Source of the DNA: Octopus vulgaris
Lineage: Eukaryota
Direction of reading: 5' to 3'
Assembly: GCA_951406725.2 (NCBI GenBank)
Contig: OX597831.1
Span: 80,972,001-81,036,000, forward strand
DNA length: 64,000 bases
Of the stretch, positions 31,187 through 31,574 are shown in pieces. Each line of letters starts with the position of its first letter. The stretch's first letter is position 1. Both the position numbers and the translations under genes were made by a program. The notes below the pieces were generated by a model that had not been told where the DNA came from, did not search any database, and saw only the letters and a program-made list of their open reading frames with translations.

Positions 31187-31573
31187 ATAACACAAGGGGC
31201 ATCAGCCATCTGAATGTGGCTAGGGACAGGGCAGGGCGGTGGGGGTGTTACTGATGCATTTAGCCCCAGGCGATCATCAACGTCACCAGGAGGGCTGACG
31301 CCATCACGGCGTCCTCTAGCCTGCACAGAGAGTTGTTCGTCGAGGAGCGGTGCCTGCCATGCGTTGATAATAGCCAAATACCTTGAAACCTAGGTCCGTA
31401 TGTGGCATCCGCTTCTTCGGGGAATGATCTCCCTTTGCAGGCTAGAGGACGCCGTGATGGCGTCAGCCCTCCTGGTGACGTTGATGATCGCCTGGGGCTA
31501 AATGCATCAGTAACACCCCCACCGCCCTGCCCTGTCCCTAGCCACATTCAGATGGCTAACGTCCCTTATGTTA

Positions 31574-31574
<1 letters not shown>
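31187..31574 (+). repeat. Rod-like fold-back element with 122-bp perfect arms
   Basis: 31204-31325 is the exact reverse complement of 31436-31557; imperfect pairing continues outward (31187/31574) and inward to the hammerhead core. Confidence 0.95.
31358..31402 (+). ncRNA. Type I hammerhead ribozyme motif, U3-A8 core variant
   Basis: CATGCG - TTGATAA - TAGCCAAATACCTT - GAAA - CCTAGG - TC - CGTATG; 6-bp stem I, palindromic stem III ACCTAGGT, GUC triplet (predicted cut after 31396); stem II is weak. Confidence 0.6.

Follow-up and report, generated by a model that had tools for sequence, protein, structure and literature searches.

The window, a stretch of 64,000 nucleotides of the Octopus vulgaris genome, contains in all probability two partial copies of a 356-nt tandem repeat, inserted head to head. 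The repeat, a non-LTR retrozyme, bears a hammerhead motif and has likely been pasted into (TA)n by Penelope-like retrotransposons (PLEs). The unit belongs to one of several families of 352-363 nt and is classified here as a new non-LTR retrozyme family. The retrozyme insertions carry PLE hallmarks, namely (TA)n targets and two fixed 3′ ends; families with a U3-A8 core are invisible with Rfam; and chimeras at predicted cut sites suggest that, in living cells, retrozyme-type ribozymes cleave and the ends are joined again. The hairpin in the window is itself ordinary for its kind, and the interest derives from the family.

Layout of the insertion and its repeat family

The insertion consists of two partial units arranged head to head, both outer ends being 3′ ends of the element. 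Unit numbering starts at the predicted cut site, with L011:1581-1936 as reference.

30923..31143, no strand: (TA)n target tract, left
31144..31574, no strand: whole insertion
31144..31325, minus: reverse piece, unit positions 40-221/222, with the long end
31144..31186, minus: tail of 43-44 nt, from the short end (unit ~178) to the long end (unit ~222)
31204..31325, plus: left perfect arm, insertion by-product
31320..31325, no strand: 6-nt microhomology where the two inverted pieces meet, at the foot of the native rod
31320..31574, plus: forward piece, unit 280-356, then 1-178, spanning the predicted cut site, with the short end
31320..31441, plus: imperfect rod native to the element, comprising helix I and its extension; conserved between families, where compensatory changes occur
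31355..31357, plus: 3-nt bulge adjoining helix I, conserved in position
31358..31402, plus: type I hammerhead, predicted cut after C31396
31358-63/31397-402, plus: helix I of the hammerhead, 6 bp
31364-70, plus: core U3..A9
31371 and 31384, plus: U10.1 facing U11.1
31372-74/31381-83, plus: helix II
31374..31374, plus: private G>C, breaking the third helix II pair of the window copy
31375-80, plus: loop 2, 6 nt
31385-88 and 31388-95, plus: GAAA and palindromic helix III, respectively
31436..31557, plus: right perfect arm
31572..31728, no strand: (TA)n target tract, right

The first-pass annotation had opened the element at 31187; its true start is 31144, the omitted stretch being the tail on the minus strand. 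The (TA)n setting described there was found on both sides. Compared with L011, the reverse piece shows 4 differences, all within unit 162-172. Its overlap with the forward piece (6 nt) is the longest among 65 inverted insertions of the family, and a 6-nt microhomology is absent from the others of the 65. Since only one ribozyme and less than one unit per strand are present and helix II is broken, the window copy is likely a dead, inactive end product. The element is without a sign of coding, the sole stop-free frame of at least 120 codons over it continuing into (TA)n.

A genome-wide search for copies with the window hairpin, as had been proposed, yielded 173 matches from 1227 candidates, with a period of 356; most of the 173 cover positions 131-388 of the query only, and many are spaced 356 apart. 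What had been taken for a 390-nt rod RNA is, as an element, a 356-nt tandem unit, and the more general proposal of a small non-coding mobile element of the retrozyme or PLE kind is upheld by these units, their type I hammerhead and their (TA)n surroundings. The distinct natural monomers number 36 (352-363 nt, inside the range of about 170-400 nt for non-LTR retrozyme units), dimers and longer forms occur, and tandem source loci of 4-5 units are present. Predicted circles of seven representatives gave z values of -4.3 to -7.4 in six cases and of -1.5 for one old copy; 58-69% of the fold is paired, and the ribozyme rod lies opposite an end formed by several hairpins. Among 18 monomers, double-sided changes affect 20 of 56 consensus pairs, including the long-range helix that encloses the short end. 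Instead of the viroid-like rod first envisaged, the monomer is thus predicted to be a branched circle with one rod arm. The GC content is 48-49% in the clade of the window copy and 42-45% in sister families. Contig cover came from four runs whose RNA status is a guess. One contig among them, of 390 nt (X3 record 15), has overlapping ends and a period of ~360, which fits a circle as well as a tandem, the comparison having no silent control. An exact 23-mer of the high-depth 3′ part has a count of 1345 and led to the sister families, not to a parent PLE. Remoter retrozyme-like families (L313, L325, L328, L332, L037) differ in helix I, and their 3′ parts are either shorter or altered.

The resemblance to non-LTR animal retrozymes, as far as the accessible parts of PMC7229834 and bioRxiv 10.64898/2026.07.22.740005 describe them, comprises non-coding tandem units of ~350 nt with one type I hammerhead each, a short palindromic helix III, a strongly self-paired predicted circle, and coexisting PLEs; helix II of the window family starts with U-U, as does that of axolotl HHR_Amex2 (PMC7229834, in the part available). 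The octopus elements differ in occurring as dispersed insertions of 1-5 units with PLE-type inverted arms, a tail, and a (TA)n target, in their U3-A8 and U3-G8 cores, and in a GC content of 48%, as against <45% for retrozymes according to a figure legend in PMC7229834. In the main text of PMC7229834 the words "inverted" and "microsatellite" are absent, and the accessible parts of both sources make no mention of cephalopods. Mussel retrozymes of 350-390 bp are present there as circRNA, and RtcB circularises retrozyme monomers in vitro (PMC7229834, same part). Cleavage failed in 8 of 9 Xenopus retrozyme dimers, a point against the route proposed below. Cephalopod retrozymes were the subject of no paper found in a literature search covering few subscription journals, without Repbase, Dfam, or supplements; the supplements of PMC8557442, PMC7229834, and a 2026 preprint may list such families.

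The hammerhead and its selected core

The letters of a hammerhead are in place as first read (TTGATAA at 31364, GAAA at 31385, CCTAGG at 31389, C17 at 31396). The bulge at 31355..31357 is presumably the loop-1 partner of loop 2, after the tertiary contact of the Schistosoma ribozyme. At site 31374, G is found in 53 of 54 aligned copies and also in contigs of all four sequencing runs compared, the C being private to the window copy. A stem II of two pairs, as had been noted, is therefore correct for this copy and not for the family, which has three; the shortfall is private decay at 31374.

A U3-A8 core is indeed a known tolerated covariant, published for Schistosoma PLE hammerheads (PMC4209133, in the part available). 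The likeness to the minimal PLE hammerheads of that source (Schistosoma Cercyon), which had also been drawn, extends to U3-A8, the palindromic helix III, and opposite-strand pairs 100-700 bp apart. It does not extend to the minimal form, which has a helix II of 7-8 bp, a short helix I, an extra base after A9, and G10.1-C11.1, while the window family has three pairs plus U-U in helix II and canonical helix lengths (6-bp helix I, 4-position helix II, 6-nt loop 2). With RF00163 (Schistosoma Sm-alpha type) it shares the spacing, the 6-bp helix I, CAAAUA in loop 2, and GAAAC-N4-GUC, and differs in the U3-A8 core, in U10.1-U11.1, and in the lack of an Rfam match: neither the window copy nor an intact family copy gave a match to the Rfam hammerhead models at E<=10 (gathering score, 34 bits), and even the C3-G8 sister family reached 32.2 bits against RF00163, below the gathering score.

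A loose hammerhead pattern matched the genome 6720 times, compared to 1222 times for a reversed control. On one fixed scaffold, for which controls gave 0, the 3-8 states are C3-G8 (1411), U3-G8 (640), U3-A8 (543), and C3-A8 (33), these being counts of copies that are not independent of one another. In a tree of 107 rows (176 extracted, 150 of them complete, then thinned at 98.5%), the U-A label must change no fewer than 6 times, and all 4 rows with C-A are nested inside C-G clades. The invariance of the core in alignment A1 is circular because most of its rows were chosen by the core pattern. A non-circular test was obtained from 24 diverged pieces (out of 74 pieces, 79 loci) chosen without that pattern, in which 0 of 240 core positions are changed versus 1044 of 6539 (16%) elsewhere, and C-A does not occur; it replaced an earlier comparison, whose non-core rate of 7.2% was inflated by unfiltered palindromic matches. 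The check that had been suggested, core against flanks in other copies, thus finds the core more conserved than flanking bases and, with C3-A8 as the rarest state, speaks for the proposed selection on the 3-8 pair. In 24 aligned copies, double-sided changes are seen in 12 of 24 named pairs, and helices I-III covary; 92.5% of cells are paired versus 26-52% when slid, the structure having been drawn from those same sequences, and 10.1-11.1 is unpaired in 17 of the 24. RNAalifold on alignments A1 and A2 missed the mid-rod because of gaps.

In ViennaRNA predictions helix II has zero probability, intact copies included, and the favoured structure is an inactive alternative in which the core is hidden; it could be a switch protecting monomers. 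Self-pairing of the helix III palindrome is predicted at -11.4 kcal/mol, which fits cleavage as a dimer. The predicted cleavage bond coincides with the joins of chimeras in sister families and of one (L399) from the clade of the window copy.

Insertion ends, chimeras, and the proposed route

Insertions were mapped at >=90% identity, by which 104 of 151 found were retained (47 lay below the threshold), comprising 65 inverted, 37 single, and 2 complex ones. The position of the inversion junction is different in all 65, with overlaps of 0-6 nt, mostly 0-3. The 167 5′ ends are flat over the unit (chi-square p=0.78); the cut site lies within 131 of the 167 pieces, and 79 are longer than one unit, both counts being inflated because many loci were chosen by the ribozyme. 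The 3′ ends are fixed: in 64 insertions of the window copy's clade, 96 of 107 are located at unit 170-180 or 216-226, that is, at two places ~44 nt apart. A TA-rich flank adjoins 88 of 107 3′ ends versus 5 of 21 5′ ends. Where both ends of an inverted insertion could be classed, one is long and the other short in 32 of 33 cases (p 4e-9); the full set of 43 comprises 32 long/short, 1 short/short, 0 long/long, and 10 with an end elsewhere.

Partial tandems, an inverted 5′-truncated copy, and a tail at one end are all present in the family, as in a non-autonomous PLE. In the accessible parts of PMC8557442 and PMC3846280, PLEs are described as having a tail, inverted copies, and a bias to (TA)n, and PMC11167929, likewise in part, adds a tail bounded by two RT start sites, with both strands extended; all of these are points of likeness. 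The window family differs from PLEs in having no ORF, a tail of 44 nt, and, within the 80 PLE-centred loci compared, no homology to a PLE terminal repeat. The strict one-long-one-short pairing and the common template of the arms are quantified here; the available portion of PMC11167929 reports the same start sites on both strands in vitro.

As to that template, the arms of one insertion diverge at 194 of 11751 sites (1.65%) and its tandem units at 145 of 8925 (1.62%), versus 9.5% for random pairs. Arms resemble each other as closely as tandem units do, and far more than random pairs, which places their origin in a single template or a single source locus; given the mixture of subfamilies in the 9.5% baseline, two transcripts of one source locus would fit equally. 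The window copy is a partial exception in that unit 162-166 of its left arm shows a linked set of three variants from another subfamily, which a single template leaves unexplained. These variants, at 31193-31203 and adjoining the perfect stretch, may reflect a template switch or gene conversion.

The genome contains young autonomous elements with RT and GIY-YIG domains and hammerhead variants of their own, whose two ends, 34-42 nt apart, are TA-flanked likewise. Family B (L097-L126, L287-L306; 775-aa frame) is very young, with 143 scored matches ~100% identical over 268 aa, and its inverted pairs are long/short in 15 of 15 checked; its 3′ region has a hammerhead-like motif in which C replaces U4, the older relative L096 having U. 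Family A (L077-L089; 781-aa frame) is a PLE with a Zn-finger-like linker, RT, and GIY-YIG, and upstream of these a distinct frame, up to 479 aa long and without Pfam match; the family has a U3-A8 hammerhead-like motif and a 39-nt tail. No autonomous PLE whose terminal repeat is homologous to the unit was encountered among 80 PLE-centred loci, a small and biased sample, 150 of 6136 GIY-YIG candidates having been scored. A tail match at L090 turned out to be a separate retrozyme copy, and a 3.58-kb spacing at C1:1716086/1719666 a segmental duplication and no PLE. A short TATA..CTCG motif is common to three PLE-type tails (L082, L307, L399) and the retrozyme tail (L011), not to family B, and may serve as a lead to the partner enzyme.

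In 48 hammerheads (47 distinct), GUC is followed by a purine in place of the C usual in the family. Most are substitutions or small deletions, and 13 have no match to the retrozyme profile. In six chimeras (L307 with its duplicate L308, L320, L327, L339, L342, and L347), the downstream part starts at the predicted cut of a hammerhead-like motif belonging to another element, and the joins show no microhomology; the register is less certain in L347, an old copy. Displacing the pattern by +1 base, as a control, gave 28 matches with 0 junctions at +1, two of them being junctions at the cut site itself. Through this control L399, of the window copy's clade, was found, whose cut-site join is exact and which is 100% identical to its donor L362. 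Seven independent chimeras, each joining a retrozyme to the downstream product of another element, are exact at both predicted scissile bonds; three of them (L320, L347, L399) carry the junction on both arms, so that it would be older than both cDNAs, and L320 and L399 end long/short on the tail of the acceptor. Most simply, cleavage of both RNAs at the predicted bonds, and their joining, would have preceded reverse transcription. The acceptors comprise at least five different elements; U3-A8 cores are found in L068, L056, and L362 (listed acceptors) and in the donor L342. Probable further chimeras are L353 and L377, and in L315, L340, L344, and L348 the downstream part is foreign, its donor cut site not having been located. 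Reverse chimeras, with a foreign ribozyme upstream of the product of the window clade, were absent from 18 matches in a search limited to that clade. Chimera positions are, for example, G000:C5:142466247, C14:57565503, and C18:83605057. Abundant short repeats with hammerhead-like GAAACGTA motifs (L102, L206, L371, L389, L392, L129) serve as chimera acceptors. In L340 (G000:C16:20780103), a retrozyme ribozyme is joined at GUC to a GC-rich sequence without match among the loci compared, which could be a cellular RNA with a 5′-OH end.

From these data the insertion in the window was likely copied head to head from a self-cleaved, probably circular RNA by a PLE RT-endonuclease priming at two fixed sites. 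Source loci, of which those with at least two tandem units are observed, would be transcribed. Cleavage by the hammerhead would follow GUC, a dimer formed via the palindromic helix III being the probable active form; the chimeras at that bond support this cut. Monomers would then be ligated into circles as in other animals. A PLE protein would then cut (TA)n, cDNA starting at unit ~178 on one DNA end and at ~222 on the other; for this priming step, the two ends and their one-of-each pairing are directly observed. As the insertions show, both cDNAs pass the cut site, stop at random places, and join head to head with an overlap of 0-6 nt. Cleavage, circles, ligase, and parent enzyme all enter this scheme as presumed participants.

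An uncleaved multimeric transcript of a tandem source might alternatively serve as template for the same PLE-type insertion, with no circle being formed and the ribozyme acting elsewhere. This is considered unlikely, though of some weight: flat 5′ ends and pieces exceeding one unit fit a multimer equally well as a circle, tandem sources of 4-5 units exist, and in the accessible part of PMC11167929 hammerhead mutants were without effect on insertion of the anole PLE, cleavage being dispensable in vitro and no reads having been found at the cut site. Against it, differences at shared variants are rare between the tandem units within an insertion (28 of 8925 sites), the chimeras point to joining and insertion of cut RNA ends, and circles dominate in mussel (PMC7229834, in the part available).

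Beyond the self-cleaved template for single insertions, we tentatively propose, with slightly less than even confidence, that the genome records a full cycle, in which the hammerheads of retrozymes and several PLE families, U3-A8 types among them, cleave in vivo. A host ligase would join the resulting ends, mostly into circles but at times between elements, and priming of both (TA)n ends on a single RNA would fall to one PLE dimer. If so, priming would always use one end on each side of the tail, by which tail and head-to-head repeats would be explained together. Chimeras could also arise, rather doubtfully, by end-to-end template jumps of the RT between two cut RNAs, or from few chimeric source loci, and not by ligation each time. 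L307 and L320 have common donor and acceptor families, and transcription of a chimeric locus would likewise put the junction on both arms. Against these possibilities stand the both-arm junctions of L320, L347, and L399, which are older than both cDNAs, and the number of acceptor elements. Either route, jump or ligation, requires both RNAs to be cut at the predicted bonds. U6/LINE-1 chimeras formed by RtcB ligation (PMC6789731, in the part available) are alike in that two RNAs are joined end to end and then retrotransposed; here, hammerhead cleavage would make both ends, the carrier would be a PLE, and ligation is presumed.

For the mobilization of animal retrozymes, PLEs had been proposed from co-occurrence and pLTR homology; here, PLE tail and target are present on the insertions directly. 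Cut-site chimeras would constitute lasting evidence of in vivo cutting by PLE-type hammerheads, minable in any genome, and the one-long-one-short rule together with both-arm chimeric junctions leads to a specific two-primer, one-RNA model for tail and inverted repeats. Among the papers searched (few subscription journals, no supplements), none on ribozyme-site chimeras was found, nor was the one-long-one-short rule or the common arm template found in print.

Perfect arms and the native rod

The arms are exactly complementary over 122 bp (31204-31325/31436-31557), and perfect pairing stops there, as had been reported. They are not a native stem; one segment of the unit is present twice, in opposite orientations, the long perfect arms having arisen as a side effect of insertion. 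Only the inner rod of ~120 nt is native and covarying. The stem I extension of ~170 bp ascribed to the element RNA is accordingly reduced to a native part of ~55-60 bp (31320-31441). The rod appears continuous because the junction of the window copy fell at the base of the native rod, where two copies of unit 40-161 prolong it as a perfect 122-bp stem. Wobble pairing had been said to work on the plus strand only; a bias to that strand is confirmed (31320-31441: -52.4 versus -40.7 kcal/mol, z -5.0 versus -2.9), its exclusivity is not. A read-through transcript of the window copy, if formed, would yield long double-stranded RNA.

That the locus encodes a selected, viroid-like rod RNA of ~390 nt with a stem I extended by ~170 bp is very improbable, even though it folds as a single rod on the plus strand (-345.9 kcal/mol, z -36.6) and the inner 120 nt are a truly conserved rod. 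A single-rod fold on either strand is expected for any long inverted repeat, and the antisense strand folds nearly as well (-341.8 kcal/mol). The junction is unique to the window copy, 122 bp with zero mismatches have p 0.13 at the usual within-insertion arm divergence, and family monomers are branched circles in prediction. Hardly credible is a fold-back or MITE-like DNA transposon with long terminal inverted repeats and a TA target: inverted arms, TA flanks, and fixed outer ends would suit it, but the ends differ by the 44-nt tail, the centre is variable and 5′-truncated, 37 of 104 insertions are single in layout, direct tandems are common, and the ribozyme is under selection. A fold-back assembly or library artefact, at which perfect arms within microsatellites and the lack of a junction-bridging piece among the contig pieces listed might hint, can practically be dismissed, as the arms differ at 4 sites just beyond the perfect stretch and by the tail, and the same end rule is seen in 65 other inverted insertions.

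Elsewhere in the window, a tandem array of 43 bp (32304-34479; 50.5 copies, 95% matches) lies 730 bp from the insertion. An open frame of 686 codons without Pfam match at 13643-15700 (plus strand) is possibly a large host exon, and fragments of a LINE zf-RVT (51187-51933) and of a mariner-type transposase (56027-56512) are found on the minus strand.
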